The notes under the pieces were generated by a model that had not been told where the DNA came from, searched no databases, and saw nothing but the letters and a program-made list of their open reading frames with translations. A stretch of 64,000 nt of DNA from Methanotrichaceae archaeon (GTDB taxonomy: Archaea; Halobacteriota; Methanosarcinia; Methanotrichales; Methanotrichaceae), in the NCBI GenBank assembly GCA_963803145.1, contig CAWDLW010000016.1, positions 64,001 through 128,000 of the forward strand, given 5' to 3'. Positions 4,215 to 63,491 of this stretch are shown in pieces. Position 1 is the first letter of the stretch. Each line of letters starts with the position of its first letter. Both the position numbers and the translations under genes were made by a program.

Positions 4215-5407
4215 TCACACCTTAACACCCTGAATGCCCGATTCATTGAAGGCAATCTGCATAATAACATCAGTGATGGTTCCCAGATCAGGATCCCCGA
4301 GCTTGAGCGGCCTTCCTGCAGCAGATCTGGCTCTGGCCAATGCGACAAAGTCTTCCCAGCTTCTGGCATTGAAGTCTGCCCGTAGAACCAGTCCAGATCC
4401 CTCGTTCTGCACCGGCAGAATTATTCTTTCTTTGCCGCCCAAAAGTATGGAACCGATAGCAGGAGTTACTCCTACATAGGCCATATCCATGCAGTCCTGC
4501 TCCATCAGTGTAGTTAGCGTGAGGCCAGTAGGAGCTGTGACCAGCCCAACCTCCGCCACCTTTTCACCTTTAACCACCAGATCAAGCACTTGAGGCCTAG
4601 TTGAATTATCCTGCGGCTTTAGTGCAATCCCGTAGCGATCGTTAAAGTACCTCCAGTTCTTGATGGCTGCAAACAGAGGTGCCTGATGGTCGATCATCAG
4701 ATAGCCGACGACCAATCTGTGTTCAAGGGGCTTGGGAGTACTTAGTGTGCCTGAATTGATCATCGTTTTGGCGGCACTGTAAGGACCTGGATCGAAGAAC
4801 GAAATGTTTTTAACGCCTGCCCCCAGCTGCCGGGCGATTCATCGAGAAGACAGGCCATCTGAGAAACGAGTGCGTCAATGCCTCGCCACCAGGCATCATC
4901 AGGTTCGCAAGAGAATATCAGGTACGGTCGGGAGTCTTCGAATACCTCATGTGAAGATATGGCACCCTCTCCCAGAGTGTAGTTTTTGCTGCCCATCAGC
5001 CAGTCTGCTGTGATCTCAGTAGATGCGTGGGGATTCTCGCAGACCCACTGAGTGGCCCTGATGTTCAGGTAGCAAAAAGCGCTGACCAGATCCTGGTGAT
5101 TCTCCAAAAGGCGGTCACTGGCCACCAGGACGCAGCATGGGTGATTGCGCCAGCCTGGTGGAAAATCTTTGGAAGCGACCACAATCCTTCCAATTCCTGA
5201 CTCTTCAGCCATCGACAGATAGGGCTGCCAGGCGAAATATCCGTCTATCTGGCCAGTGGCCAGGAGCATGGGCATAAGATTTACACCTTTGCAGTAGAGT
5301 AGCTCTACCTTAGACGGAGTTTCAGCTGCCGTGGAGGGCTGGGCTGAAAATCCGATATCGGAGAGAAAAATTCCGAGGAGAAGCACGACCGCAAAGATGC
5401 GATGCAT
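4215..5407 (-). pseudogene. ABC substrate-binding protein (SsuA/TauA/NrtA class), split by a frameshift near 4805-4840 and apparently circularly permuted
   Basis: The upstream ORF has a signal peptide plus IDGYFAWQPY...HPCC. The downstream ORF has VGYLMIDHQAPLF...EGSGLV...GTITDVIM. The downstream frame is open upstream of its ATG (GVKNISFFDPGPYSAAKT). Confidence 0.75.
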
Positions 5408-5559
5408 GGTAGTCGCTCATCCGGCTTATCATATATACAACTTCGCTAAGATTATATCCAAGCCCTCTCTAGCAAATCAAAGACCTTATAGAACTAAATG
5501 GGTAGCATTACTGCTCGCGTGCCCGGGCCAGGGCATTGCAGCCCCTTGTTGTGTTATGG

Positions 5560-5688
5560 TTAATTATCAACATCGCTCGCCGGTCCAAAGTCGTCTCTCA
5601 GCACCGACCCGAAGAGAGATAGACGCCGGATATGATGCCTCCGGCAAAAATCTGCTATTTTATCCATATCAATAGGTATGCGAGCCAT
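5560..5688 (-). pseudogene. Truncated minimal nucleotidyltransferase (MNT antitoxin) fragment, not in ORF track
   Basis: My translation is [42 protein letters not shown]. It has the GS...DxD motif and stops immediately afterwards. Confidence 0.85.
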
Positions 5689-5735
5689 GTCTATTTACTG
5701 CCAATATTCGCTCTGCCTAGCATACTACTTTGGAT

Positions 5736-6005
5736 TCATCCCCGCCTGCACGCCCAGGCGGGCGCTAGCTTGTGCCTGAATGCAGGTGCGCGCGGGGCAA
5801 CCGGGACCGCTGGGAGGATGGCCAAATCCAGATCGCCGGGAGGCTTGGGGGACTTCTCTCCCTTACCTGCCAGGGAACCGAAGAGGTAGGCCAGGAGTAC
5901 GCCTTCCTTTTTGAAAAGAGACGAAAGGTTCTCCAGGCGGTTCTGAATATCTGGAGGAAGCGGTTTAAGCCTGTACCAGCGCTCGGGGATGCCCAAAATC
6001 AACAC
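5736..6005 (-). pseudogene. Truncated minimal nucleotidyltransferase (MNT) fragment
   Basis: VLLAYLFGSLA...GDLDLAIL, after which homology is lost in GC-rich junction sequence. Confidence 0.75.
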
Positions 6006-6187
6006 TCCTTAATACATGAGTAAAGGCTATCGTCTATCGAAATGTATTCACGGATATGAAGCACACTGCCATCAATGATCTCTGCTTTGATCCTCAGAAA
6101 ATAGAAAGTATCTCCCGTCTTGAAGTCTAGAACATCGTATTTTTTAACTATTTCATCCCTGAGCGATTCTAATGTCTTTAGCATCAT
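5999..6187 (-). pseudogene. Truncated DUF6516/TumE-like toxin
   Basis: YFLRIKAEIIDGSVLHIREY...YS resembles the DUF6516 N-terminal half. The C-terminal RWDNAPHH-type region is missing. Confidence 0.55.
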
Positions 6188-32792: not shown

Positions 32793-33635
32793 TCAAAGAA
32801 CACCTTCGGGTTTATCCACAGGCTTGATCCCACTGACTTTTATGCTAGATATCGAACCTTCGACCTCTTTTAGCTGTCCTTCAGACACCATCAAGCCCTC
32901 CAAAATTCTACCGCCTATTGGATCGTTAGCCACACAGTCTAATGGGAAAATTGATTCATCGACCACAGAGACCTCCTTAAACCCGGCTGATTTAATGGCA
33001 TCCAGGTACTTATCCTTCATCAAGGCGCCTGAGATGCAGCCGACATATGCTTCGACCGATTCTCTTACGAATCCCGGCAGTTTCTTGAGTAAAACGATAT
33101 CCGATACCATTAGCCTTCCACCTGGTTTAAGCACCCTGAATGCCTCTTTGAATGCTCTCTCCTTACTCGGCACCAGATTGATGACGCAGTTGGAGATTAT
33201 TACATCGATGGAATTATCCTCGACAGGCAATTTTTCAATCTCTCCCTGTCTGAATTCCACGTTCTTGTAGCCTCCTTTCAGGGCGTTGGCTCTCGCCTGT
33301 GCCAACATCTCTGCAGTCATGTCAACCCCTATGACCTTACCATTCGGACCTACCTTATTTGAAGCCAGGAAACAGTCGAAACCTGCACCTGATCCAAGAT
33401 CGAGAACAGTCTCTCCATCTTTAATCGATGCAAGGGCAGTCGGGTTGCCACAGCCTAGTCCCAAGTTTGATCCTGAAGGCACCGCCTGCATTTCCTCATC
33501 AGTGTAGCCGATTCTCTTGCTGATCTCCTTGGGCTTAGCGGTTCCACAGCATCCTACTGAACAGCAGCTGTCGTTCTGGTTTGCAGCTCGGGCATATTTC
33601 TCCCTTACCACCTTCTTTATCTCTTGCTCATTCAT
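32793..33635 (-). CDS. arsM: Arsenite S-adenosylmethionine methyltransferase
   Basis: N-terminal CC..CC, GLGCGNP, LDLGSGAGFD, SNCVINL and YVGCISGA. Confidence 0.93.
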   Translation of the reverse strand: MNEQEIKKVVREKYARAANQNDSCCSVGCCGTAKPKEISKRIGYTDEEMQAVPSGSNLGLGCGNPTALASIKDGETVLDLGSGAGFDCFLASNKVGPNGKVIGVDMTAEMLAQARANALKGGYKNVEFRQGEIEKLPVEDNSIDVIISNCVINLVPSKERAFKEAFRVLKPGGRLMVSDIVLLKKLPGFVRESVEAYVGCISGALMKDKYLDAIKSAGFKEVSVVDESIFPLDCVANDPIGGRILEGLMVSEGQLKEVEGSISSIKVSGIKPVDKPEGVL

Positions 33636-33701: not shown

Positions 33702-33989
33702 TTATCTCTTGAAAATTTCATCCATAACTGGCCCGAGCATCGACTTTACCATGCCCTCAAGCTCTTCGACCTTGATCAGAGAGAGACAGCAGATCTTTCC
33801 ATTTCTCTCCATGCTCACCACTGCCAATTTATCTCCAGGCTTTATCTTTGCCTTTTCTCTGATATCCTTGGGAAGAACCATCTGTCCCCTTTCATCCACA
33901 GTTACTATCGATTCCACTTTGCAGCAGCTCATTATGCCAGGCGTGCAGCACTGTTCCATCTCATTTTCAGCGGTCATATCATACTCCAA
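33702..33989 (-). CDS. AbrB/MazE-family regulator with vicinal cysteines (HgcC-like / HgcAB-associated family)
   Basis: CCKVESIVTVDERGQMVLPKDIREKAKIKPGDKL...KICCL. Confidence 0.8.
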   Translation of the reverse strand: MEYDMTAENEMEQCCTPGIMSCCKVESIVTVDERGQMVLPKDIREKAKIKPGDKLAVVSMERNGKICCLSLIKVEELEGMVKSMLGPVMDEIFKR

Positions 33990-34105: not shown

Positions 34106-34553
34106 CTACTGGAACGTTTTGACTATCCATTCCCTTATTTCATCTCTCACTTGCCTGAAGACTTTGAGCTGTTCATCCTCTGAACCTTCTGCGGTGCTCG
34201 GATCTTTAAAAGTCTTATGGACGGTCTTTTTGGCTGCCGGAGCTGTAGCTGGAGCCTTAAGGCTTATCCCGCAAATCGGGCACGCTTCTTTGGCCTTATC
34301 GCAAACTGTGACCGCCAGGTCGAATAGAATGCCTCGATACTCGTCCATTGTTTTCGAGTGCAGGCCAGATATATCGATGCCAATTTCATTCATGACCTCA
34401 ACAGCGCGAGGGTCAATCCGCGTTGCTTCAATCCCTGCACTATAGGCTTCATACCGATCTCCATACAAAGTCCTCAGCAATCCTTCCGCCATTTGAGATC
34501 TGGCAGAGTTGTGGAAACACAGAAATAGGACTTTCTTTTGCCTCGAGCTTCAT
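34106..34553 (-). pseudogene. arsC: Thioredoxin-coupled (LMWP-type) arsenate reductase with its start codon out of frame
   Basis: KKVLFLCFHNSARSQMAEG, TVCD...CPIC and FKDP. The ATG at 34553 is out of frame with the P-loop (GAG GCA AAA GAA AGT vs AAG AAA GTC). Confidence 0.85.
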
Positions 34554-49898: not shown

Positions 49899-50327
49899 GT
49901 GATGCTAATATCGCCCGATAACGAGACTTATGATGACTCGGATATCGATGAGGATGCAATATGCACTCTCGCGAGGCTCATCGGCGATTCAACTAAAGCC
50001 AGGATGAGGGCCAGGAAGCTCTCTTCTTTGATGAACCGGATTGAGATAGAAACCACTGAAGAAGATATCGAAGTTTTCAAGGCTATAGCTGATCCCTGTC
50101 GCTTCAAGATTCTGAAGCTTCTCATTGAGGGAGAGCTCTGCGTCTGCGAGATTATGACCGCATTAAAAAAGCCTCAATCCTCCACTTCTCACCATTTATC
50201 CATCATGAAGGAGGCCGGACTGGTCAAAGAACGCAGAGACGGCAAATGGTCCTATTATCGGATTGCAGATGGAGCGGTGATAGAGATAGTCAGAGAGGCT
50301 GAGGCCTTGAAGAAAAATAGAGCTTGA
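49899..50327 (+). CDS. arsR: ArsR/SmtB metalloregulator with N-terminal extension
   Basis: FKAIADPCR, ELCVCEI and QSSTSHHL. Confidence 0.9.
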   Translation: MMLISPDNETYDDSDIDEDAICTLARLIGDSTKARMRARKLSSLMNRIEIETTEEDIEVFKAIADPCRFKILKLLIEGELCVCEIMTALKKPQSSTSHHLSIMKEAGLVKERRDGKWSYYRIADGAVIEIVREAEALKKNRA

Positions 50328-51241
50328 AGGAAAAAGAGATGTTATGGGATAACTTAATTGTTGCAGCGAATTTCTTTCTGGAAATCGCTGTAGAGTTGAT
50401 GGTTTTATTCATAGGCATAACCTTCCTGGTGGGATTGATCCAGGAATATGTCTCAGATGAAACCATCAAAAGAGCCCTGGGTGGGCGTCGTAAAATCTTG
50501 GGCAGCATCCTTGGAGCAGGATTTGGGGCCCTCACACCATTCTGTTCCTGCTCGACCATACCCCTGCTACTGGGGATGCTGAACGCCGGTGTGCCTTTTG
50601 CGTCTGCCATGTCGTTCCTGTTTGCATCGCCCCTATTGAACCCGGTAATCCTCTCTCTGTTCGTGATATTGATGGGGTGGAAAGTGGCAGCCCTATACTT
50701 TGCGGTCACTTTCATAGGCTCGATTATCATAGCCCTTATCCTCGATGAGCTGGGATTTGCAGGCCAGGTCAAACCAGTGGCTGCCATAAGAAACAACGGT
50801 TGTGGCTGCCATCAGGGCTCGGATCTTAAGTCGCGGGTAGGCAGGTCTGCTGTATTTGCCAAAAACCTTTTCCTGCAGCTCATGCCGTACCTCCTAATAG
50901 GCGCTGGAATCGGTGCCTTCATCCACGGCTTTGTTCCCACAGATGTGATCTCCCGAGTGGCAGGACCAAATAATCCCTTCGCCATTCCAGTAGCTGCAGC
51001 AATTGGGGTGCCCATTTACATAAGAGCTGAGACTATGATACCCATAGGCCTCGCCCTCATAGAGAAGGGAATGTCCGTAGGTGCCGTCCTAGCACTCGTC
51101 ATCGGAGGTGCTGGTGCGAGCATTCCTGAGCTGACGCTTCTTTCGGCCATATTCGAGAAGAAGATGCTGGCAGCCTTCGTGGTCACCATCTTCGTCATAG
51201 CTGTGGCTGCGGGTTACCTGGCCAACATGCTGGTTACCTGA
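50324..51241 (+). CDS. DUF318/ArsP-family permease (second)
   Basis: TPFCSCSTIP, FLFASPLLNP and GGAGASIPE. Confidence 0.9.
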   Translation: MKEKEMLWDNLIVAANFFLEIAVELMVLFIGITFLVGLIQEYVSDETIKRALGGRRKILGSILGAGFGALTPFCSCSTIPLLLGMLNAGVPFASAMSFLFASPLLNPVILSLFVILMGWKVAALYFAVTFIGSIIIALILDELGFAGQVKPVAAIRNNGCGCHQGSDLKSRVGRSAVFAKNLFLQLMPYLLIGAGIGAFIHGFVPTDVISRVAGPNNPFAIPVAAAIGVPIYIRAETMIPIGLALIEKGMSVGAVLALVIGGAGASIPELTLLSAIFEKKMLAAFVVTIFVIAVAAGYLANMLVT

Positions 51242-51664: not shown

Positions 51665-53074
51665 TCACCAGAGCTTGAACCCAAAATATCTCACTGCGTA
51701 GATCAGGCCGATCAGTATCACCGCCAGCCCAAAGAGCTTTGTGACCCACTTTCCCATAGAGATATATTTTTCTCCTATCTCTCCCCCGACCGCTCTGGAG
51801 AAAGTCGCTATAGGAATCACTGGCACCCCGTGACCAATGCCAAAGACAAATAGCATCATTCCTCCTGCCAGGGGCGTCACGTTCTGGGAGATGAGCCAGA
51901 TGAGCACTGGGAAGACTAGTGAGACGGCACAGGGAGCCCAGCCAAGAGCAAAGAATATGCCCAATGTGAATGCTCCTATGAAGGCTGAGTACTTAAAAAG
52001 ATCCATAGAGAAGTGAACGAGCCTCTCCATAATGCCCTTCTCCGCCGGAGGATCATCTGGATCGGCCTTATGGAAGGAAAGAGATGATCTTACTGGCTCG
52101 ATGATCTCTCCAATGGGCTTGATGATATTTACTCCAAGAATGATCATCAACAGGCCTGCCGCCAGGTCGAAGAATTGCGCCTGACGGATGAAGACCCCTA
52201 TATCCGACAGGAACAGCCCGACCACGAAGAAAACCAGTGCCATTCCCATGGTGAATGCCACGCCTATCATGAACCCTTCCTTCGAGGCAGAGGCGCTCTT
52301 TTTCAGGTACTCCTCCTTTCTGCGGGAGGTCATAACGTAGGAGAACATGGCAAGCAACAGTGCCACAGAACACGGCGATAAAGAGGTTATAATTCCTAGG
52401 AACAGCATTCCCAGGTAGGTCACACTACGACTCGGCATCACGCCTGTGCTGTTGAACCCCGCTCCTGTCGTCTCCCCTCGTTCTATGCCTTTTATTTTGC
52501 TGTAGAGCGAATCGGCGCTCTGTATGCCATCAATTTCGCCCTTGCCGAGCTGATAGACATGATATACGCTCGCTATCTGCCCTTCTTTATTGATCAAGAT
52601 CAGAGTGGGATTTGCAAAACCTCCTTCTAAGGTCGAGTAGTCGATATACTTGCTGGTGAGTGGGTAGGGCTCAAAATCCTCAATCCACGGCCAGCTCACA
52701 TTAATATTCCACCAGGATTCGGCTAGAGATTTTCCATCCTTGGAGTAAGGAGACTTTCTAACATTCAGAGTTACTATCTCTATGCCTGGGTCTTTCTGCT
52801 TCAGCTTCGCCAGCTCTTCAGTCTGAGATTTAAGAGCGTGCTCGCATTCCCTGCACAACGGATTTTCTATGTTCGTTATATGCAGAAGTACAACCTCTCC
52901 TCTGTAATCGCTCAGCGATATGGAATTGCCGTTGATATCGACGGCATGAAAATCAGGAGCTAAGGCTGCCTCTTGCGACAATCCTGAAAAAGAACTGCAG
53001 AAAATTATACAGCCGACAATGATAAAAAGAATAAGAGATCCTGTAATCTGGGATTTATCGATCTTCAGAGGCAT
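51665..53074 (-). CDS. ccdA: Thioredoxin/TlpA-like domain fused to a CcdA/DsbD transmembrane domain
   Basis: APDF...LSDYRG, CREC, SLSPCS and GWAPC. Confidence 0.85.
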   Translation of the reverse strand: MPLKIDKSQITGSLILFIIVGCIIFCSSFSGLSQEAALAPDFHAVDINGNSISLSDYRGEVVLLHITNIENPLCRECEHALKSQTEELAKLKQKDPGIEIVTLNVRKSPYSKDGKSLAESWWNINVSWPWIEDFEPYPLTSKYIDYSTLEGGFANPTLILINKEGQIASVYHVYQLGKGEIDGIQSADSLYSKIKGIERGETTGAGFNSTGVMPSRSVTYLGMLFLGIITSLSPCSVALLLAMFSYVMTSRRKEEYLKKSASASKEGFMIGVAFTMGMALVFFVVGLFLSDIGVFIRQAQFFDLAAGLLMIILGVNIIKPIGEIIEPVRSSLSFHKADPDDPPAEKGIMERLVHFSMDLFKYSAFIGAFTLGIFFALGWAPCAVSLVFPVLIWLISQNVTPLAGGMMLFVFGIGHGVPVIPIATFSRAVGGEIGEKYISMGKWVTKLFGLAVILIGLIYAVRYFGFKLW

Positions 53075-53095: not shown

Positions 53096-53653
53096 CTAGT
53101 TTTTCCAGCCTGCGGAATTTGAATCGTAGTAGCTTATTGCATCCTTGACGTAATCCTCAATCCAAGCTTTGCCGGTGACATCCTCAGTGCTGTGCCATAC
53201 AGGCTGGACTTTCCCATTTGAATCGGGCGCGAGAGTTACTATTATTGTCATTGGCACGTAGGTGACGCCGCCATTCGGGTCGTACGCCTGGAGAGCCTGC
53301 TCAGCTCTTGCATCGCTTCCATCAGCCGGAATATCGTAATAGGTGAACTTATTTCCATACTCTTTCACAACCTCTGCCATGGCATCGGTTTGAGGCTTGC
53401 AGTAATCGCAACCCTTGTGAACGTAAACGACTACAGGCTTGCTCTTGAGAGCATCAAGCACCCATGAAGGATGATTGACCTCTGAGCCGAAACCAGGAGA
53501 TTGAGAGGGATATGTGGTCCACCAATCATCATTTCCTGATCCAACTGAATGCTCAAAGCTTGGCGAACCGGAAACTGCCATGCAAATTGCTAGTACAGCT
53601 ATTGTAAATAACGATGCTGCAAAACATAATTTATTAGATAATCCCATTAACAC
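53096..53653 (-). CDS. Secreted thioredoxin-family protein
   Basis: Signal peptide, KPVVVYV..GCDYC and YVP. Confidence 0.82.
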   Translation of the reverse strand: MLMGLSNKLCFAASLFTIAVLAICMAVSGSPSFEHSVGSGNDDWWTTYPSQSPGFGSEVNHPSWVLDALKSKPVVVYVHKGCDYCKPQTDAMAEVVKEYGNKFTYYDIPADGSDARAEQALQAYDPNGGVTYVPMTIIVTLAPDSNGKVQPVWHSTEDVTGKAWIEDYVKDAISYYDSNSAGWKN

Positions 53654-54094: not shown

Positions 54095-54286
54095 ATGAGC
54101 GATAATATTACAGGAAGAAAAAAGAGTTTAGAGCCTATGAAATGCGATGTCTGTGGCAATGAGGGCGTATCCTTTCTCAAAGTAAACCATAGAGTTCTTG
54201 GAAGCATAAAGATCTGCCGTAATTGCTTCGAAAAGGAGCGCCTTAATCTAATTCCCCAAAAAGGCGGGTGCTCATGTTGCAGCTGA
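54095..54286 (+). CDS. Small zinc-finger protein ending in CSCCS
   Basis: CDVC...CRNC...GGCSCCS*; overlaps the arsR start. Confidence 0.65.
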   Translation: MSDNITGRKKSLEPMKCDVCGNEGVSFLKVNHRVLGSIKICRNCFEKERLNLIPQKGGCSCCS

Positions 54287-54690
54287 ATGACGAGTGCGAT
54301 AATGAAGCTGATGATGGCAAAGATGCCATTTGCAGTATGACAAGGCTAATCGGCGACCCTGAAAAAGCCAGAGAGAAGGTGAAAAAGCTTCGTGCTCTTA
54401 TGAAGAAGCTAGATTCGGATAGCGCTGATTTGGAAGTGGAAATCTTCAAGGCGGCAGCAGATCCATGCAGGCTTAAAATTCTAAAGCTTCTGAGGGATGG
54501 AGAGCTCTGTGTCTGTGAGATAATGACCGCACTGGACAGACCCCAGTCCTCAACATCTCATCATCTATCTATACTAAAAGATGCGGGACTTATTAAAGAG
54601 CGCAAGGAGGGCAAATGGTCTCGATATCGTCTATCTGACGGGGCAGTCATTGAGATGCTTAACCAGGTTAGGCTTCTGAGGGATAAATGA
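54274..54690 (+). CDS. arsR: ArsR/SmtB metalloregulator, paralog of 49899-50327
   Basis: DAICS..RLIGD, DPCR, ELCVCEI and QSSTSHHL. Confidence 0.9.
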   Translation: MLQLNDECDNEADDGKDAICSMTRLIGDPEKAREKVKKLRALMKKLDSDSADLEVEIFKAAADPCRLKILKLLRDGELCVCEIMTALDRPQSSTSHHLSILKDAGLIKERKEGKWSRYRLSDGAVIEMLNQVRLLRDK

Positions 54691-54874: not shown

Positions 54875-55461
54875 TCCGCTCCGTCCTTTTATAATTACTC
54901 TAAAGACTTGATATATCAAATCATATTGAGCCTATGTTCTATGATAAGTTATTTACAGTGTAAAATATTTAAAACTGATGTATGCTAGAACTCTGATAAT
55001 TATATACAGTATCTTTTCATAGCAATTGAGATCAAGAAAATTAATACCATTATGCCATTTATCAAGGATCATCAATGTAAGAATTTCTATGGCAAGAATC
55101 ATTAGAATTATAAGCTCTGATATCTATATGCGCGCATATCCACATGTATAATTATGTCGTTCCCATTTAATCCTCAAATATTATATAAGCGTACAAATGT
55201 TGATCATAGATTATCGATCAGAAAAGTGGTCCTATATGAATGGCACTAGATAGCGATAAGGGATTCAAATGAATGTCCAATTAAAGTAATTTCCAGTAAA
55301 TATTGCAGTTACAATTAAAACATCCTTAACTACCGTATTGATGACATTTTCTTAATCTAATTTCCATTTATTTTATTAAAGAGTTGGGCTAAATTAGTGT
55401 TTGTGTTTCGCTAAATTTCCTAGACCTTGCGAAACATTTGGGAAAGATAAGGAGGAATGCT

Positions 55462-56394
55462 ATGAAAACTCTTATAGAACTAGCCATAGGCTTCCTGCTG
55501 CTGGTGTCAGCGGCTGCAGCCACGGGAAACTGGAACTGCGAGAATGTTAATATTTATCAGGAGGCAATTGGAAACTGTATCACAGGCGATGTCAATTTAG
55601 CCCAGATAACAGATGCATCGTCGTTTGTCTTCGGCTCCAACAATGAAGTAGACCAGTGCATGAGCCTCAGCGCCGATGCTAACTGCCTGACAGGCGTTGG
55701 AGAACAGACTAACCTCATACAAAGAGGCGATCTGACCGGCAATGCAACAGGCTGCAACAACGATCTCGATCAGGGAATCGATTTCAGTGCCTACACCAAC
55801 TGCCTGACGGATAGCAACATGACTCAGTGGGGCATGCAGGTTGGAGAGGCAATCGGTAGCTGTAACGAGTTTGATCAGTACGCTGCAGCCGATGCCTGTA
55901 ATAACGCTCTGACAATGAGCGATCAGAAGCAGATATCAGACTTCAATGTATGCGCTACGGGCGACAACAACTATGTCGATCAGTGTCTCTACCAGGAAGC
56001 TTCGGATAACTGTTTGACAAGCTCAGCACTCTGGCAGCAGACCGCTAAGACAGCCGATATTCTTGGATGCGATAATAGTGTCTACCAGGATAACAACCTC
56101 CAGTTTGCAGATTATAACTGCCTGACAGGCTCAGTATTGAACCAGGTAATCTGCGAGAATGCTCAGGTAACTGGCAGCGGTAACGAGGTTGATCAGGGAT
56201 CTTGTAACGCTATTGAGACTGATGCCAACTTCAACTGCATGACCAATGCAGAAATGCTGCAGTCCATTAACAGCAATGCCGTCTTAGCTGGATGCAATAA
56301 CTATGTTGATCATGAAATTTACTTCAACACAGATTGCAACTCCCTAACAGGCGGAATGCTGACACAGATGTCCACAGTCAACAGCAACGATTAA
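55462..56394 (+). CDS. Secreted Cys/Asn/Gln-rich repeat protein (probable beta-solenoid)
   Basis: Signal peptide ending AAAA; seven 35-39-aa repeats NCLT...Q...GxxNxVDQ plus one partial repeat; GGAGG RBS. Confidence 0.85.
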   Translation: MKTLIELAIGFLLLVSAAAATGNWNCENVNIYQEAIGNCITGDVNLAQITDASSFVFGSNNEVDQCMSLSADANCLTGVGEQTNLIQRGDLTGNATGCNNDLDQGIDFSAYTNCLTDSNMTQWGMQVGEAIGSCNEFDQYAAADACNNALTMSDQKQISDFNVCATGDNNYVDQCLYQEASDNCLTSSALWQQTAKTADILGCDNSVYQDNNLQFADYNCLTGSVLNQVICENAQVTGSGNEVDQGSCNAIETDANFNCMTNAEMLQSINSNAVLAGCNNYVDHEIYFNTDCNSLTGGMLTQMSTVNSND

Positions 56395-56404
56395 ATCTGA
56401 AGCA

Positions 56405-56429
56405 AAAGGCGAGAGTTCCTCTTGCCTTT
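56405..56429 (+). terminator. Hairpin downstream of the repeat-protein gene
   Basis: AAAGGCGAGAG-ttc-CTCTTGCCTTT followed by a T-rich tract. Confidence 0.45.
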
Positions 56430-56605
56430 GAAATTTTATTGGATGGTACTAATATTGCTTGCCTCCCATCTCTCAAACCCAACTGGGCTGCGGACAGGAA
56501 GCCAGTATTCTCTGTAACAACCCTGCCGGTAGCCTGGTTGAATTTTTGTTTTTCGGAAATATATAATTTGATTTTATCGAAATTATCGTGAAACGCTAAG
56601 TTCAT

Positions 56606-56617
56606 ATATGCGCATAT
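56606..56617. promoter_or_regulatory. Palindrome ATATGCGCATAT immediately upstream of arsR (56632)
   Basis: Perfect 12-bp palindrome; a related ATATGCGCGCATAT lies at 55126-55139. Confidence 0.5.
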
Positions 56618-56631
56618 TAGAATCTGAATGA

Positions 56632-56994
56632 ATGAATCGGATGGAAGGATACATTGAGCTATTTAAAGCGCTTTCAGATGAGACACGCCTGAAACTAATA
56701 GTCTTGCTTTACAAGAGAGAGTTTTGCGTCTGTCAAATCGAGGCTGCTTTGGGCATCTCTCAAACAAAAGCTTCTCGACACCTTGCTATTTTGAGACGTG
56801 CAGGATTGTTAAAAGCCAGGCGGAATGGTCTGTGGGTATATTATACTCTTGATGTGCCGGATGACAAATTTGAAGCTGGCTTATTCGAAAATCTCTCCGA
56901 TTCCTTGTCTACCGAGCTAATCTCTATGGTAGACCGAGCTAAAAAGAAAGTTTGTACAACTCAATTAGCCCCTTCATGCGGGGAAACTACATGA
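56632..56994 (+). CDS. arsR: ArsR/SmtB metalloregulator
   Basis: FKALSDETRL, EFCVCQI, SRHL and C-terminal Cys residues. Confidence 0.9.
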   Translation: MNRMEGYIELFKALSDETRLKLIVLLYKREFCVCQIEAALGISQTKASRHLAILRRAGLLKARRNGLWVYYTLDVPDDKFEAGLFENLSDSLSTELISMVDRAKKKVCTTQLAPSCGETT

Positions 56995-58388
56995 TACGCT
57001 CAAAAATTCTCTTTATTATTATAGCCGTAGCTTTACTCGCCTTTACGGTTGCTGCAGTCCCAAATGCCAGTGCAGATGAATGCAAAAACTGTATCTCCTC
57101 CGAAGACGGGACTCAAATTGGATTGAATAACCCAGAAACCGGATCTAACGCGGCTGAAGACAGCACTAACAATGTTCCTGAAAACAGTGCCGCTTTGAAG
57201 CAGCGCGGCAGCTTCACAGAGATGCTGGTGCCAATTTCAGGCATATCCAGCTCAGATATCATTCTGGATGTAAGCCCAAATGCTAGTGAGTATATTGAAG
57301 GCGCGATCTATATCCCATACACCAAATTCTATACAGAAGGAGGAGACCTAAGATCAGTATCAGAGATCTCCAAGGATCTTGGAGATGCAGGGATTGCTCA
57401 TGATGACTCTGTTATAGTTTACGGCGAGTGCCTTCCTTGTGGTGGGGGTCCTTCAACTGCAACCTACGTTTACTGGGTGCTGAAGTACCTTGGCCATGAT
57501 AAGGTAAAGGTGTTCGACGGTGGTATCAAGGATTGGAGAGCTGCCGGGCTTCCAACGGAGGCTGAACCGAAGACACTGCCAAAGACCAACTATATCCCTT
57601 CCATCAAGCCGAATCTTCTCGCCGCCTATGACTATGTTAAAAATGGCAATGCCCAGATAATAGATGCAAGAACACCTGAGGAGTATAATGTTAGCTCTAT
57701 ACCAGAGTCCATCAATATGCCTTATGATAAGGTTCTGAATGGAAGCAAGATCAATGATAAGGTTGCCCTAACAGATCTGTTCATAGGATTGAACAAAGAT
57801 AAGCCGGTAGTCGTTTACACCAATACGGGTGTCAAGGCATCATTGCTCTGGTTTGCACTGGAGCTTGAAGGCTATGATGCAAGGATTTACTCGTGGGCAG
57901 ACTGGTTTGCAAACCAGCCGAAGCTGGATATCAGCCTTAAGGATGCAAGTGCTGACCCCAATCCAGCAAATCCTGGAAATGCTGTCATGATCACTGCAAC
58001 ATTCGGCGAAGGTAATAGGACTAGTTTTGGCTCGAATGCTTCAGACAATGAGGCTGTGCCCCCCAACGAAGTGAAGCTTACAACCAAGGGATGTGCAAAC
58101 TGTGGTTTCGGAGGCTTTCCCAAGCCTGACACATCGGGCGGAATAGCCAAGATTGGCGATACCTATCGAAAAGCATCGGATAATACGCTCAATTGCACTG
58201 CAACTATTACTAACTCCGCTGGCAAAGAGGTAGGCGAAGTTAAGATGCGTCAGGTTTCTGGAGATGAATACGCAGGTATCTGGACAGCCAGCGTCCCTGC
58301 AGGAGTTTATAGCATGAGTTTGGTCGCCTCGGCATCCGGTACATCCAAAACCTTCAGAGATGCGCTAGAGCTAAGGATAATCAATTAG
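56991..58388 (+). CDS. Secreted tandem-rhodanese (sulfurtransferase-like) protein with C-terminal Ig-like domain
   Basis: Signal peptide, IEGAI.IP, LGHDKVKVFDGG..W, IIDARTPEEY...IP.S and KPVVVY; ATGA overlap with arsR. Confidence 0.85.
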   Translation: MIRSKILFIIIAVALLAFTVAAVPNASADECKNCISSEDGTQIGLNNPETGSNAAEDSTNNVPENSAALKQRGSFTEMLVPISGISSSDIILDVSPNASEYIEGAIYIPYTKFYTEGGDLRSVSEISKDLGDAGIAHDDSVIVYGECLPCGGGPSTATYVYWVLKYLGHDKVKVFDGGIKDWRAAGLPTEAEPKTLPKTNYIPSIKPNLLAAYDYVKNGNAQIIDARTPEEYNVSSIPESINMPYDKVLNGSKINDKVALTDLFIGLNKDKPVVVYTNTGVKASLLWFALELEGYDARIYSWADWFANQPKLDISLKDASADPNPANPGNAVMITATFGEGNRTSFGSNASDNEAVPPNEVKLTTKGCANCGFGGFPKPDTSGGIAKIGDTYRKASDNTLNCTATITNSAGKEVGEVKMRQVSGDEYAGIWTASVPAGVYSMSLVASASGTSKTFRDALELRIIN

Positions 58389-58445
58389 GGCCATGAGAAC
58401 ATCAAGTAATAAGAACATAGATAGATCAGAAGAGGGGAGTATACA

Positions 58446-59534
58446 ATGACGGATGGGATAAGCAAAGGTCTAGACTTCCTATCCAGATTTTTAACCGTAT
58501 GGATCTTCGCAGCGATGATTTTAGGCATCGCAATAGGCTATTTTGCTCCAGGCATAACAAAATTCATACTGAGCCTTCAGGTCGGCACAACATCAATTCC
58601 CATAGCAATCGGCCTGATATTGATGATGTATCCGCCCCTTGCCAAGGTGAAGTACGAGGATCTGGGCACCGTTTTTGGAGATAAGAAGGTTCTAGCACTC
58701 TCCCTAACTCAAAATTGGATTGTTGGTCCACTGCTCATGTTTGCTCTGGCAGTAATATTCCTGCGTGATTATCCCCATCTGATGTACGGCCTGATCCTGA
58801 TTGGTCTTGCTCGATGCATTGCCATGGTCATAGTCTGGAATGAGCTTGCCTGTGGATGTACTGAGTACTGCGCTGGTTTAGTGGGGCTGAACTCAGTATT
58901 CCAGGTATTTCTGTATTCAGTCTACGCATACATATTCATCACAATCTTGCCAGCCTGGCTTGGTGTGGCGGCTGGAACAGCCGTTAACGTCACAATAGCC
59001 CAGATAGCGGAGAGCGTCTTCATCTACCTGGGGATTCCATTCCTTGCAGGAATTATCACCAGGTACACGCTGATAAGGGCAAAGGGCAAGGGCTGGTATG
59101 AGACACAATTCATTCCCAGGATCTCTCCGATCACGCTAATTGCGCTGCTCTTCACAATCGTTGTGATGTTCTCCCTCAAAGGAGGGTACATCGTGGAGCT
59201 ACCTCTGGACGTGGTAAGAGTTGCCATTCCTCTGATCATCTATTTCCTGATCATGTTCTCTTCCAGCTTCTACATGTCATACAAGCTGGGAGTGAACTAC
59301 GAGAATACGGCCGCACTATCATTCACCGCTGCCAGCAACAACTTCGAGCTGGCGATAGCCGTGGCAGTGGCCGTTTTTGGCATCGCTTCACAGGAGGCAT
59401 TTGCTGCTGTAATTGGACCTCTCATTGAGGTTCCAGTGCTCATCTCTCTTGTGAATGTTGCATTGAAGCTGAGGGATAGGTACTACCCCGGTGCACCTGA
59501 AAAGATATTTTGTGAAAAGGATGTAGGAAGGTGA
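58446..59534 (+). CDS. acr3: Acr3-family arsenite efflux pump
   Basis: [34 protein letters not shown] and GPLIEVP. Confidence 0.96.
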
Positions 59535-59539
59535 GATAA

Positions 59540-60337
59540 ATGGCAGGATCGCCCGCTAATGTAAAGCTCGTAAGCAATGCCATGGCCAATGTCACGAGAA
59601 GAAAGATCATGGTCATGCTTGTGGAAGGGGATAGGAAACGTGAGGATATCGAAAAGGCTGCAGGAGCCTCCATGCTTGACTACCATTTGCAGATGCTGCA
59701 ACAGGCTGGATTGGTCTCAATAAAGGACGAAATTGTATCACTCACGGATTTCGGCAAAAACTTCATGGAATCAAAAACTGAAAAGCCCGCAGAGGCCAAA
59801 TGGGATCTTGCAGGCACAAAGCCCATTGAGATCGCCGAGGTCAGGCAGCTTCTGCCCTGCATAGCAGACAAAACAAAGTTCAGAATAATCTCCAGAGTTG
59901 AGCCGCCGTTAGGCGGAGCTCTCAAGCTTCTGGAGCCATTGTTTCCCAGGGCCAGATATTCCGAGAAGATAGGGGCGCTGATTATCCAGAGGGGAAATAT
60001 CTTGATTACAGCCTATTCGACTGGAAATGTCACTATGACCATGATCAGTAGCGAGGACGAGGCGAAACAGATTCTGGACGATCTGAAGAGAAAAATCAAC
60101 GAAGCAATAGCCAAAGGCGTCACTCCTGTGCCCCGAGAGAAGATCAAGGTAGATCATACGGAGATCTACGAGTATCTGCCCAAGACCAACTGCAAGATCT
60201 GCGGAGATCAGAGCTGTTATACCTTTGCGATAAGGCTGATGGGCAGGGAGACCACGCTGGACAAATGTACCCCATTGTTGGACCCCAAATATGCTACTAA
60301 CCTCGAGCATCTGAGGGCATTGCTGGAGTACATCTGA
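59540..60337 (+). CDS. ArsR-like wHTH fused to a C-terminal [4Fe-4S] domain (FeS / AcsC-N-type)
   Basis: N-terminal LDYHLQML..AGL, LPCIAD, and LPKTNCKICGDQSCYTFA...KC. Confidence 0.82.
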   Translation: MAGSPANVKLVSNAMANVTRRKIMVMLVEGDRKREDIEKAAGASMLDYHLQMLQQAGLVSIKDEIVSLTDFGKNFMESKTEKPAEAKWDLAGTKPIEIAEVRQLLPCIADKTKFRIISRVEPPLGGALKLLEPLFPRARYSEKIGALIIQRGNILITAYSTGNVTMTMISSEDEAKQILDDLKRKINEAIAKGVTPVPREKIKVDHTEIYEYLPKTNCKICGDQSCYTFAIRLMGRETTLDKCTPLLDPKYATNLEHLRALLEYI

Positions 60338-60339
60338 AG

Positions 60340-60705
60340 ATGAAGACTATTACCATCATTCTCACGGATGGTCCGTATATCTCGGAATATGCAGAGATTG
60401 CCTGCAAGATCGCAAAGGCTGCTTTGAAGAAGTATAATGTAAATATCTTCCTCTATCTGGATGGAGTGCACATTCCAAAGATTGGCCAGGAACCTGCGTT
60501 CTTCGCAGACATTGGGGCGCTTTTCCAGGAGCTAGCCAGTGAGGGGGCAAGGATCGAGGCATGCCCGAGATGTGCCAATGCACGCGGCTATCATGCGGCA
60601 GAAGGCATATGTGAAGACTATCTGCCAGGGATCAAGATCACTAGCCTTTACAGTCTGGCGCAGATGCTTAAGGAGACCGACAAAGTGGTGGCTCTATCAA
60701 GATGA
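60340..60705 (+). CDS. DsrE/TusD-like sulfur-relay subunit
   Basis: DGPY..E, FLYLDGV and ACPRCANARG (contains the conserved Cys). Confidence 0.85.
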   Translation: MKTITIILTDGPYISEYAEIACKIAKAALKKYNVNIFLYLDGVHIPKIGQEPAFFADIGALFQELASEGARIEACPRCANARGYHAAEGICEDYLPGIKITSLYSLAQMLKETDKVVALSR

Positions 60706-61043
60706 GATCTATCTTCTATCTTTTGGATGTGGCACCTTATGGCAGCGAAAAGGCATTTGGCTCGCTCAATGCTGCTGTAGTGAGCATCGGAATGGACATA
60801 GTTGTAGGTCTCTATGCCGATGGTGTCTACCTTGCTCTTGCAGGCCAGAACAGCAGAGCTTTGGGAGTTCCCAATCTCTCCGATATAATTTACGCGTATC
60901 CCGAGATCAATGTCTTAGCCCATGAGCCTTCGCTGGTAGAGCGAGGTCTTTTTGACCAGGGATTGATCGAGAGGGTGGAGCTCGTCGATGAGAATATGTT
61001 CTTGGAGGCGATCCTGGCATCGGATTCCATAATATTATTGTGA
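60702..61043 (+). CDS. DsrF/TusC-like sulfur-relay subunit
   Basis: APYGSE, ADGVY...GQ and SL.ERG; no Cys. Confidence 0.82.
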   Translation: MRSIFYLLDVAPYGSEKAFGSLNAAVVSIGMDIVVGLYADGVYLALAGQNSRALGVPNLSDIIYAYPEINVLAHEPSLVERGLFDQGLIERVELVDENMFLEAILASDSIILL

Positions 61044-61053
61044 GGCATTAGAA

Positions 61054-61383
61054 ATGGATAGTGGCAGACTTCTCAATGAGTCTTATAGTCCCAAAATGGA
61101 TGTTTTCCTCCTGACCAAGCCCCCGAAAAGCGATCGGGCCAGGATATGCCTGCAACTGATAGTGCGATCGGAAAATGCCGTTCTGTACCTTGCAGGAGAC
61201 GGAGTTTATAATTTGTTAGATGAGGCATTCAAAGTCCTGCCAAGGGAGAGGTTCTTTGCCTGCAAGGAGGATCTGGAGGCAAGAGGCGTTCAACCTGGGG
61301 GGATATTGACCACATCGAGCGATTTCTATGAAATGCTGGTAGAGGATATAATGTCAGATGGAAATAGAATCTATACGTTTTAA
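61054..61383 (+). CDS. DsrH/TusB-like sulfur-relay subunit
   Basis: LTKPP, LAGDGVY and EDLEARG. Confidence 0.82.
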   Translation: MDSGRLLNESYSPKMDVFLLTKPPKSDRARICLQLIVRSENAVLYLAGDGVYNLLDEAFKVLPRERFFACKEDLEARGVQPGGILTTSSDFYEMLVEDIMSDGNRIYTF

Positions 61384-61595: not shown

Positions 61596-62192
61596 ATGGA
61601 TTATTTATTAATTGCATCATTGTGGATAGCATACTGTTTACTTCATAGCTTTTTAGTCAGCACCAGCTTTACAAATCAGCTGACTCGTTTATTGAAGAAT
61701 TATTATGCCTTTTACAGGATTTTCTTTGTATCTTTTTCATTGGCTCTACTTATTCCTTTAATTAGATATACCGATCAATTCGATAGTAATATAATTATAA
61801 CTTATGGCCCACCTTGGAACATTGTACGATATATACTTCTTTTGGGTTCTTTATCCATGTTCTTCTGGGCTTTTTTCTTCGATTATGATTCTCTATCGTT
61901 TTTTGGCATTCGCCAAATACTAAACTTTGGGAAGGAGAAGAAAATAAATCCTTCCGAGGATTTGAAAAGGGATGGATTATTGGGAGTCGTAAGACATCCG
62001 ATGTATTTTGCTTTAATAATTGCTTTATGGTGCACTACATTCACGATGACTGGTATAATGGTAAATACAATATTAACAGCTTATGTTATTATGGGAACAA
62101 TTCTTGAAGAAAAGAAACTTGTGTTAGAATTCGGTGATACATACGTCAAATATCAACAGGAAGTGCCAATGTTGATTCCGTTTACTAAGTGA
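61596..62192 (+). CDS. ICMT/NnrU/MddA-like membrane methyltransferase
   Basis: LHS, FFGIRQ, G..VRHPMY and EE..L..EFG..Y..YQ..VPMLIP; very AT-rich. Confidence 0.8.
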   Translation: MDYLLIASLWIAYCLLHSFLVSTSFTNQLTRLLKNYYAFYRIFFVSFSLALLIPLIRYTDQFDSNIIITYGPPWNIVRYILLLGSLSMFFWAFFFDYDSLSFFGIRQILNFGKEKKINPSEDLKRDGLLGVVRHPMYFALIIALWCTTFTMTGIMVNTILTAYVIMGTILEEKKLVLEFGDTYVKYQQEVPMLIPFTK

Positions 62193-62417: not shown

Positions 62418-63491
62418 ATGAAAGTCTTAGCTCTCAATAGCAGTCTTCGCCAGGATGGCGAGAGCAGAACTGAGCTGATGCTGAGTCACCTGGTCAAAGG
62501 TATGCGTGAAGCCGGAGCCGAGGTCGAGGTTGTTAACCTTCGTGATAAGACGATCCACTATTGCATGGGCTGCTTCTCCTGCGATACCATAACGCCTGGG
62601 CAGTGCATCATCCAGGACGACATGACCCGGGAGCTCTATCCCAAGTGGCTTGCCAGTGACCTTTGCATCTACGCGACTCCTCTCTTCCACTGGACCTTGA
62701 ACGCCCCCATGAAGGCCTTCATAGAGCGCACATGGCCCGTGATGGAGCCCTTCTTTGTCCAGGCAGCCGATGGCAGATGGGTCCATCCCATACGCCACGA
62801 GCCCCCAAAGGCAGTTGTTTTGTCTGTAGCCGGTTTTGCCGAGAGCTGGATCTTTGAGTCCCTCTCTCATTACGCCAACTTCCTCTGGGGCAGAAGAGGG
62901 AAGCTGGTTGCTGAGATTTATCGTCCTGGTGCAATGTTCATGACCAGCCTTGGCCCTGAGAAGCTGGCCGATATCCTGGGAGCCACGGAGCAGGCAGGGC
63001 GAGAGCTGGTTCTAAATAACTGCGTTCTTCCTGAGACTTTAGCCCGCATACAGCAACCCCTTGCTGATCTGGATATCATTGCCAAGGCTGCAAATATGTT
63101 CTGGAGGACCTGCATAGATGAAGGGGTAAATCCCAAAGCCTTCGGCGAAAGGGTGAGGATCCCGCGTCCCCATTCCCTGGACGATTATCTGACCTTAATG
63201 CAGCTGGCCTTTTCAGCCAAAGGCGCCGGTGATACTAACGCTGTGGTGCAATTCGAGTTCATGGGCGAGACTGGGATGACTGGGGGTGACTGCCACATCG
63301 TCATCGATAAAGGGACGATACGGACTGGCATGGGAAAAGCATCCCAACCGGACGTCGTAGTCAGGGCTCCTTTTGAGCTGTGGATGGATATAATCTCGGG
63401 AAAGGCTAATCCAGTGCAGATGTTCATGGATGGGAAGTGCAGCGCTGAGGGAGACTTATCCCTGCTAATGAAGATGAGCCAATGGTTCTGA
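62418..63491 (+). CDS. Iron-sulfur flavoprotein/flavodoxin domain fused to an SCP2 lipid-binding domain
   Basis: ALNSSLR, CMGCFSC..C...DDM and ATPL; C-terminal VQFEF.G...PD..V....W..I..GK.NP..MFM.GK...EGDL. Confidence 0.82.
   Translation: MKVLALNSSLRQDGESRTELMLSHLVKGMREAGAEVEVVNLRDKTIHYCMGCFSCDTITPGQCIIQDDMTRELYPKWLASDLCIYATPLFHWTLNAPMKAFIERTWPVMEPFFVQAADGRWVHPIRHEPPKAVVLSVAGFAESWIFESLSHYANFLWGRRGKLVAEIYRPGAMFMTSLGPEKLADILGATEQAGRELVLNNCVLPETLARIQQPLADLDIIAKAANMFWRTCIDEGVNPKAFGERVRIPRPHSLDDYLTLMQLAFSAKGAGDTNAVVQFEFMGETGMTGGDCHIVIDKGTIRTGMGKASQPDVVVRAPFELWMDIISGKANPVQMFMDGKCSAEGDLSLLMKMSQWF

Follow-up and report, generated by a model that had tools for sequence, protein, structure and literature searches.

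An arsR-acr3 operon of a Methanotrichaceae archaeon with a conserved, apparently undescribed extension of an iron-sulfur protein gene and DsrEFH-like genes

Canonical arsR-acr3 islands consist of an ArsR repressor with a CxC pair and a single Acr3 permease, with arsC, arsM or arsP nearby and a palindrome before arsR. The same features are found in a stretch of 64,000 nucleotides from a Methanotrichaceae archaeon (GenBank assembly GCA_963803145.1, contig CAWDLW010000016.1, positions 64,001 to 128,000 of the forward strand), which as a whole is called the window here. In its ars operon, at positions 56632-61383, acr3 is followed by the gene of an iron-sulfur (Fe-S) protein and by three adjacent genes of the DsrE, DsrE and DsrH families, an arrangement shared with DsrEFH of A. 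vinosum, TusBCD of E. coli and YchN; the cysteines at the DsrE active site (A-C...A-R-G) and at the DsrH position and the lack of cysteine in DsrF are shared as well. The operon also invites comparison, by analogy only, with ArsD, the As(III) metallochaperone of arsRDABC, which was first taken for a second regulator and serves the ArsA ATPase: in both cases a small Cys-bearing cytoplasmic protein is encoded inside an ars operon beside the pump. The added genes form a real and conserved extension of the ars operon, which is apparently undescribed. The gene set was not found in the full-text literature searched, which excludes most subscription journals, in line with an earlier note, made from the letters of this DNA, that knew of no characterised system with this architecture.

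All seven genes are on the + strand. The ORF (open reading frame) listing gives successive gaps of -4, 57, 5, 2, -4 and 10 bp, exactly as the earlier note had them; the last four separate the genes from acr3 to dsrH. We number the genes 1 (arsR), 2 (rhodanese-fold), 3 (acr3) and 4 (winged helix-turn-helix (wHTH)-FeS), followed by dsrE, dsrF and dsrH, and call gene 4 together with dsrE, dsrF and dsrH the block. The features of the operon are as follows.

56601..56622, no strand: palindromic candidate ArsR operator, its function inferred
56632..56994, + strand: gene 1, ArsR/SmtB repressor, 120 amino acids (aa), EFCVCQ (CxC), NF033788
56991..58388, + strand: gene 2, exported tandem rhodanese-fold protein, 465 aa, signal peptide, ATG start inside the listed TTG ORF, PF00581
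58446..59534, + strand: gene 3, Acr3 arsenite efflux permease, TIGR00832
59540..60337, + strand: gene 4, three-domain protein with wHTH, TATA-binding protein (TBP)-like and PF04060 parts, according to profiles, alignment and predicted fold
60340..60705, + strand: DsrE/YchN-like subunit, PF02635, Cys75-x-x-Cys78
60702..61043, + strand: DsrF-like subunit without Cys, PF02635
61054..61383, + strand: DsrH-like subunit, PF04077 and TIGR03011 just or well under their cut-offs, conserved part from Met15 (61096)

The arrangement is beyond chance, because the gene order is conserved in many genomes. Using gene 4 and an Acr3 model we searched 60 relatives, and the 37 loci fetched were annotated by tblastn with the window proteins. 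Among 37 Methanotrichaceae genomes, this one included, 26 carry acr3 together with the block and eight carry neither, acr3 occurs alone in two (G001 and G019) and the block alone in one (G029), a table that, given the kinship among the genomes, is descriptive and overstates the association. In 13 of the 37 genomes acr3 is directly upstream of the block, and eight further genomes have the two no more than 6 kb apart, co-oriented in four and divergent at about 3 kb in four. The remaining five co-carrying genomes comprise four with acr3 and the block on different, mostly short contigs and one with a degraded pair.

The alignment of gene 4 was also scanned against 185,579 species genomes, yielding 168 relatives; the 80 best of them were retained. 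The closest belong to the Methanotrichaceae (Methanothrix/Methanosaeta, Methanocrinis), the more distant ones to Methanosarcina and Methanolobus. Among these best 80 of 168, 63 have all three dsr genes after gene 4, contig ends cutting most exceptions; acr3 (at least 60% identity) is adjacent in 20 and present elsewhere in the locus, within 7 kb, in 16; and 68 loci have at least one ars marker. Of the 60 loci that lack an adjacent acr3, 34 have an ArsR gene no more than 200 bp before the block. Several metagenome-assembled genomes (MAGs) have the block in two or three copies, of which one follows acr3 and another is headed by an ArsR of its own. Judged by gene order, the block is a stable unit that repeatedly follows acr3 or an ArsR paralogue of its own inside arsenic islands. 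The search for acr3 near dsrE/F/H and the FeS-wHTH gene had been proposed in the earlier note, which allowed that the linkage might be unique to this genome; it is family-wide.

Two loci deserve a separate mention. At G011:C111:11602-12642 there are a degraded acr3 with three TAG stops and a gene 4 fragment with one TAG, an intact arsR-block copy being present elsewhere in that genome; TAG in this acr3 could be read as pyrrolysine in this order. In L047, a 3-kb insert between acr3 and the arsR2-headed block holds a TPMT/TehB-like methyltransferase (5351-6028, - strand) and an AbiJ-like gene. The genes intervening in the split loci (AbiJ-like, DUF3795, the TPMT-like methyltransferase of L047) appear to be unrelated.

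The palindrome upstream of arsR has the arms 56601-56611 and 56612-56622 and a perfect 12-nt core, ATATGCGCATAT (56606-56617), ending 14 nt upstream of the arsR start, with an A/T-rich TATA-like stretch (about 56557-56569) upstream of it. This agrees with the palindrome that the earlier note placed in the promoter. The 18-nt version has one copy in the window (0.07 expected; at least one match in 6 of 100 shuffles), and the identical 18-mer, TTCATATATGCGCATATT, closely precedes an arsR of 76% identity in another genome (locus L043). Since the 18-mer is kept there while the flanking DNA differs, a role as the ArsR operator is plausible. A hairpin with a T-run at 56405-56438 comes after the gene preceding the operon; the sigma-70 promoter and terminator scan, inapplicable to an archaeon, was used solely for this element. 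The 212 bp following dsrH are A/T-rich, with TATA-like boxes ahead of the next gene. From the spacing and the synteny we infer a single transcript for the seven genes.

The arsR gene scores 94 bits against NF033788 (cut-off 55), and the Cys pair of its EFCVCQ motif we take to be the As(III) site, after R773 ArsR. In the ArsR proteins encoded upstream of the rhodanese-acr3 pair, the E-x-C-x-C-E motif is present in 24 of 24. The acr3 gene, single-copy in the genome according to the profile search, scores 446.7 bits against TIGR00832 (cut-off 282.8) over model positions 1-327, and by family membership its product is an arsenite exporter.

Gene 2 matches PF00581 (85.1 bits) in two stretches and also matches solved tandem rhodaneses. 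However, the C-terminal rhodanese domain has Thr at the position of the catalytic Cys, YCriaerS of 1uar aligning with YTntgvkaS, and this position is Ser or Thr in all 26 aligned relatives linked to acr3. Most relatives have a lipobox-like signal peptide followed by G-C-S-C-S-G-G, and the protein is possibly lipid-anchored. The window protein, which has a C-terminal extension of about 150 aa, falls into a subgroup with an ECKNC motif and an inserted GECLPCGGG loop. Judged from its residues, gene 2 encodes an exported Cys-motif pseudo-rhodanese and not a canonical sulfurtransferase or persulfide carrier, so that the part of persulfide mover, given to it by the earlier note, falls away. Two candidate roles were rejected: canonical rhodanese sulfur transfer, as the catalytic Cys is absent, and an arsenate reductase of the Acr2/Cdc25 type, as the protein is exported and has no Cys-X5-Arg loop.

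Gene 4 encodes a protein of three domains. Residues of about 1-80 make up an ArsR-like wHTH, a single TBP-like repeat spans about 97-192, and the PF04060 domain, of the [4Fe-4S] type, occupies about 206-262. The N-terminus scores 21.1 bits for HTH_5, just under the cut-off of 22, and the C-terminus 39.4 bits for PF04060 (cut-off 23); the latter is 38% identical to the corrinoid iron-sulfur protein (CFeSP) 2ycl_A over 52 columns. Invariant in 19 of 19 aligned sequences are Cys107, Asp110 and Arg115, as well as Cys218, Cys221, Cys226 and Cys243, from which a [4Fe-4S] cluster is predicted; just one invariant Cys is thus added to the four of the cluster. In the wHTH, A14, N17, R20, R21, H49, L50 and L53 are near-invariant, and the recognition helix is ArsR-like. 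The AlphaFold model (predicted local distance difference test, pLDDT, 78) shows three domains, the wHTH part being three helices and a beta-hairpin, for which Foldseek finds OhrR and YodB. The middle domain has no Pfam family in the profile search; its best Foldseek matches are the archaeal TBPs 2z8u and 1mp9 (E 0.005-0.009 over 82-95 columns, none at E of 0.001 or below). The ESM Atlas yields clusters of an unnamed archaeal '(Fe-S)-binding protein' at 0.88-0.89, below the 0.9 level, which is a lead only. The wHTH-[4Fe-4S] fusion of the earlier note therefore stands in its recognition helix and its four-Cys PF04060 domain, with the HTH_5 score just short of the cut-off and with a TBP-like domain that the note did not have. 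We give equal weight to gene 4 acting as a transcription factor and to its acting otherwise. Methanosarcina has two tandem copies.

The dsrE and dsrF products exceed the PF02635 cut-off of 22.7 with 65.5 and 29.1 bits, and DsrH reaches 24.0 bits for PF04077 (cut-off 24.4). All equivalog scores are under the cut-offs: 33.2 against 89.25 for TusD, 28.5 against 94.15 for TusC and 38.7 against 49.2 for TusB (TIGR03011). In DsrE, Cys75 and Cys78 are invariant (75 of 75) within the motif A-C-x-R-C-A-x-A-R-G; Cys75 aligns with the Cys of A. vinosum DsrE (2hy5), and the closest solved relative is YchN (1jx7), whose CxxC reads CKTC. DsrF has no Cys in an alignment of 68 sequences. In DsrH, Cys32, presumably equivalent to Cys20 of A. 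vinosum DsrH, is present in 65 of 65 sequences and Cys70 in 58 of 65. The profile search found no DsrC/TusE (PF04358) in this 99.3%-complete genome, and its sole TusA is on another contig beside a different, lone DsrE. Because of the scores below the cut-offs, the YchN-like CxxC and the lack of DsrC/TusE, a canonical Dsr/Tus relay is unsupported, and by its sequence DsrEFH here is a YchN-like CxxC variant. What the earlier note called dsrEFH(tusDCB)-like hence holds for the broad DsrE families and the conserved cysteines, and not for the Tus equivalogs; a TusBCD of tRNA thiolation was considered and rejected on the low scores and the absence of TusE from the genome. One genome (L053/L011, 8004-9003) has the order dsrE-dsrH-dsrF after gene 4, and an additional dsrF-like piece 5.4 kb upstream on the opposite strand.

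Homologues of gene 4 were also sought in a sample of 401 genomes of the phylum, and 56 gave matches: in the Methanosarcinales, 10 of 12 and 19 of 52 genomes of two families, and in three other families 19 of 64, 6 of 54 and 1 of 4. In the other families the match covers residues of about 96-263, the proteins being about 180-205 aa long and having no HTH. Among 12 loci with such short homologues that were fetched, four have Acr3 (at least 59% identity) 1.1-2 kb away three further ones have weaker ars-like neighbours, one of these also having dsrE and dsrF, and the other five, two of them with cut flanks, have no ars neighbours. One distant locus reads AbrB-like - acr3 - arsC, an opposite-strand permease and then an Fe-S gene that keeps the LPCIAD motif. 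Because the TBP-like plus Fe-S core adjoins acr3 in families without dsrEFH, the Fe-S protein, rather than the sulfur-relay genes, is by its gene neighbourhoods the more general arsenic-linked element.

In a Methanolobus MAG (L097, 4870-6928), gene 4 comes after genes for a DGC-domain protein, an MtrA-like (corrinoid-type) protein and an unmatched 211-aa protein, an arrangement that could point to methyl transfer on arsenic. Beyond the full-length gene 4 of Methanolobus there are two permeases of the Acr3/SBF type.

On the evidence of its neighbourhood, the operon belongs to a larger arsenic island, about 12 kb long and conserved in the Methanotrichaceae. The other features of the island, and further arsenic genes of the window, are the following.

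32793..33635, - strand: ArsM, profile match
33702..33989, - strand: AbrB/MazE-like small protein, beside arsM
about 34106..34531, - strand: ArsC of the low-molecular-weight phosphatase (LMWP) type, profile match
49899..50327, + strand: third ArsR, profile match
50324..51241, + strand: ArsP-type permease (ArsP_1, 212.8 bits)
51665..53074, - strand: TlpA-like/CcdA-DsbD membrane fusion, CRECE motif and two membrane Cys
53096..53653, - strand: exported thioredoxin-like protein, GCDYC motif
54095..54286, + strand: small zinc-ribbon ORF, 63 aa, CxxC...CxxC
54268..54690, + strand: second ArsR, ELCVCE, the type heading rhodanese-acr3 in most relatives

The host genome (4.13 Mb in 51 contigs, 99.3% complete, 6.8% contaminated; the window is on contig 16) contains one acr3, two matches at the ArsM level, two LMWP-type ArsC matches and one TusA. 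The TlpA-DsbD fusion and the exported thioredoxin-like protein, whose genes are recurrent neighbours of the block in relatives, would form an extracytoplasmic thiol-reducing pair, and the pair of the third arsR and arsP also recurs in related loci. In M. harundinacea and Methanocrinis the order is rhod <- acr3 <- arsR <- Zn-ribbon, then exported Trx-like -> TlpA-DsbD -> gene 4 -> dsrE -> dsrF -> dsrH -> arsC (-> arsM), then <- arsP; there the block, flanked by TlpA-DsbD and arsC-arsM, is among undisputed arsenic genes. Thus, the linkage of acr3, dsrEFH and the Fe-S gene stands as the earlier note read it, and its operon is merely one part of an island that includes an extracytoplasmic thiol-reductase set.

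Some neighbouring genes are of interest in themselves. The zinc-ribbon ORF shares 19 nt with the start of the second arsR, in a different frame; the recurrence of this pair upstream of arsR in many related loci suggests that the zinc-ribbon protein is a conserved small partner of the second ArsR type. Between the two arsR genes, at 55438-56394, a 318-aa exported protein with about ten Cys-containing repeats (...N-C-L-T...) is encoded, which had no match in Pfam or NCBIfam and no tblastn match in any fetched locus; the gene has the look of an insertion peculiar to this genome. The open frame of the ArsC-like gene encodes its P-loop, VLFLCFHNSARSQ, before any ATG, GTG or TTG occurs in it; the start codon is either unusual or lost, and relatives align over this N-terminus. 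In a distant family (L129, 3134-3370) a Cys-rich AbrB-like protein is encoded directly before acr3, and an AbrB/MazE-fold protein may be an alternative archaeal arsenic regulator. Downstream of the operon, 212 bp past dsrH, there is a membrane methyltransferase gene (61596-62192) with a sub-threshold match to the methanethiol S-methyltransferase MddA (74 against 270 bits), and then a fusion of flavin mononucleotide (FMN) reductase and SCP2 (62418-63491); in a relative of the same genus the FMN-reductase/SCP2 gene directly follows dsrH.

By a small preference, we read the operon as an ArsR-controlled system of arsenic detoxification with a two-sided thiol system around Acr3. In the cytoplasm, the DsrEFH-like complex would serve as a platform of cysteines, each E/F/H unit offering up to four conserved thiols, and would accept As(III) or the sulfane sulfur of thioarsenicals in the sulfide-rich cytoplasm, leaving free arsenite to Acr3. 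The Fe-S protein would be its partner, either supplying electrons that reset the cysteines, Cys107 being next to a [4Fe-4S] domain, or reporting their state to DNA through the wHTH. Outside the cell, the pseudo-rhodanese would handle the exported arsenic, while the TlpA-CcdA fusion and the exported thioredoxin-like protein would hold this pseudo-rhodanese in the reduced state. The parts of this reading differ in strength. The block is probably tied to arsenic in its function. That it carries persulfide sulfur we consider somewhat doubtful, and that it binds As(III) directly, as a chaperone or a buffer, slightly more so. Similarly tentative is the boldest version, an undescribed anaerobic arsenic-sulfur pathway defined by the TBP-like/[4Fe-4S] protein, which in the Methanosarcinales is fused to a wHTH and accompanied by the YchN-type DsrEFH complex; in this pathway a cysteine relay driven by ferredoxin-level Fe-S chemistry would add sulfur to arsenic, remove it or hand As(III) to Acr3, with coupling through CcdA to the extracytoplasmic Cys proteins. 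If true, the relay would supply an enzymatic link, so far missing, that connects the cycles of arsenic and sulfur in methanogenic soils and sediments.

Several observations, besides the kinship among the genomes that inflates the co-occurrence counts, weigh against the detoxification reading. Among the best 80 gene 4 loci, 44 have no acr3 within the fetched flanks, many being stand-alone arsR2-block units; therefore the block can presumably work away from acr3. In the ArsR paralogues that head stand-alone blocks, the CxC pair is present in 16 of 33 and absent in 17, other conserved Cys being present; such paralogues may bind a ligand other than As(III). In the Methanosarcinaceae the block is found in 6 of 21 genomes and not beside acr3, the sole exception having acr3 at 2.75 kb and no dsrEFH. 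The Fe-S protein occurs without DsrEFH, a Methanolobus locus having wHTH-FeS and no dsrEFH, so by their distribution the two need not act together. Finally, the predicted complex of gene 4 with DsrE, DsrF and DsrH scored 0.59 (best control 0.29). In the calibration, 116 of 157 solved complexes passed the mark, as did 2 of 215 mismatched pairs; in the band up to 0.60, where this score lies, only 18 of the 157 passed, together with both mismatches. The calibration holds only roughly here, as this run used custom alignments and four chains, unlike the calibration set. The runs agreed in at least 79% of contacts, with partner pLDDT of at least 76, and this model lends binding of gene 4 to DsrEFH weak support.

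These observations partly bear on a reading which we consider unlikely, although it survives best among the rivals: that the block is a general unit of sulfur or persulfide homeostasis, handling sulfide and polysulfide stress or supplying sulfur, under an ArsR/SmtB sensor of the persulfide type, and merely shares a stress island with acr3. The 44 loci without acr3 and the 17 paralogues without CxC, with their other Cys conserved, fit it, as do the sub-threshold matches of the window ArsR proteins to the sulfite sensor BigR (NCBIfam). DsrE-family proteins are sulfur carriers in the studied systems (PMC6620896). It is less easily reconciled with acr3 lying a few bp from the block in 13 of 37 family genomes and 20 of 80 loci, with its presence and absence tracking acr3 (26, 8, 2 and 1), with the block standing between TlpA-DsbD and arsC-arsM in another genus group and with the Fe-S core adjoining acr3 in distant families. 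A sulfur unit would also sit oddly with the failure to find DsrC/TusE and with a sole TusA beside a different, lone DsrE.

Rather less probable still is that gene 4 is purely a second transcription factor, sensing redox state, sulfide or arsenic, and that DsrEFH is regulated cargo without direct action on arsenic species, repairing, for example, thiols or Fe-S proteins damaged by arsenic. The HTH-less homologues of about 180-205 aa (residues 96-263) are still linked to arsenic in other families; therefore the conserved function would reside in the TBP-like and Fe-S part. The two tandem copies in Methanosarcina and the HTH_5 score of 21.1 under the cut-off of 22 are further difficulties, and so is the weak support that the model gives to gene 4-DsrEFH binding. 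On the other side are the near-invariant wHTH residues with the ArsR-like recognition helix, the DNA binding of both wHTH and TBP-like folds in other proteins, and the position of gene 4, which resembles that of a regulator heading dsrEFH.

Last, that the Fe-S protein is a cytoplasmic ferredoxin-type donor to the CcdA/DsbD conduit, replacing thioredoxin in strict anaerobes, with DsrEFH as a lineage-specific adaptor, we consider improbable, since the window TlpA-DsbD pair is on the opposite strand 6.5 kb away, many block loci have no DsbD gene in their flanks and gene 4 has one extra invariant Cys, despite the single-strand series exported Trx-like (exp185) -> TlpA-DsbD -> wHTH-FeS -> dsrEFH with gaps of about 50 bp in Methanocrinis and M. 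harundinacea, the DsbD-like gene in one string with the short Fe-S gene and acr3 in L127, and the use of PF04060 as an electron-transfer module in CFeSP and RnfB.

In rice paddies, wetlands and digesters, methanogens of the Methanothrix type are the dominant producers of methane from acetate. Arsenic there is for the most part sulfide-bound, and rice is affected by thioarsenicals and methylated arsenic. To our knowledge, the known ars genes leave the handling of sulfur-bound arsenic by strict anaerobes unexplained. The conserved set described here links a Cys-rich carrier complex, an Fe-S protein and an outward thiol-reducing chain to an arsenite pump, and its genes are clonable candidates for this missing step. 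It also provides a first functional context for an unannotated archaeal (Fe-S)-binding family, a YchN-type DsrEFH variant and a rhodanese-fold protein without the catalytic Cys.

The literature offers loose parallels only: DsrE/F-like genes of Thioalkalivibrio respond to As(III), their role being unclear (PMC6620896), one gene with a rhodanese domain is up under As(III) in P. mercurii ND132 (bioRxiv 10.1101/2022.10.17.512643), and TusA-DsrE is up on selenium depletion in M. maripaludis (PMC11097638).

The operon differs from the canonical ars islands in the addition of the DsrE/F/H-like complex, gene 4, the Cys-motif pseudo-rhodanese and the TlpA-CcdA set. Compared with DsrEFH and TusBCD, it has Tus scores below the cut-offs, a YchN-like CxxC in DsrE and a second Cys of DsrH at the DsrE-type position (58 of 65); no DsrC/TusE was found in the genome, and the constant partner is an Fe-S protein instead of TusA or DsrC. 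ArsD has no relation to the DsrEFH-like complex in sequence or fold, the pump here is Acr3, and binding of As(III) by the complex is putative. With CcdA/DsbD-TlpA/ResA and TsoR/TsoB, the island shares an ArsR-family regulator, an exported rhodanese-fold protein and a DsbD-type membrane thiol conduit; the CxxC motifs of the TlpA-like domain and of the exported thioredoxin-like protein, together with the two membrane Cys, recall CcdA/DsbD-TlpA/ResA. However, the scores for the NCBIfam rhodanese/DsbD fusion are sub-threshold (20.1 against 805 for TsoB, 49.7 against 115 for TsoR), the rhodanese and DsbD parts are separate genes and the rhodanese has no catalytic Cys. The C-terminal domain of gene 4, finally, has PF04060 and four invariant Cys in common with the N-terminal [4Fe-4S] domain of the CFeSP large subunit (AcsC/CdhE; 2ycl) and with that of RnfB, but here it is fused to a TBP-like domain and a wHTH, with no TIM-barrel, corrinoid or ferredoxin part.

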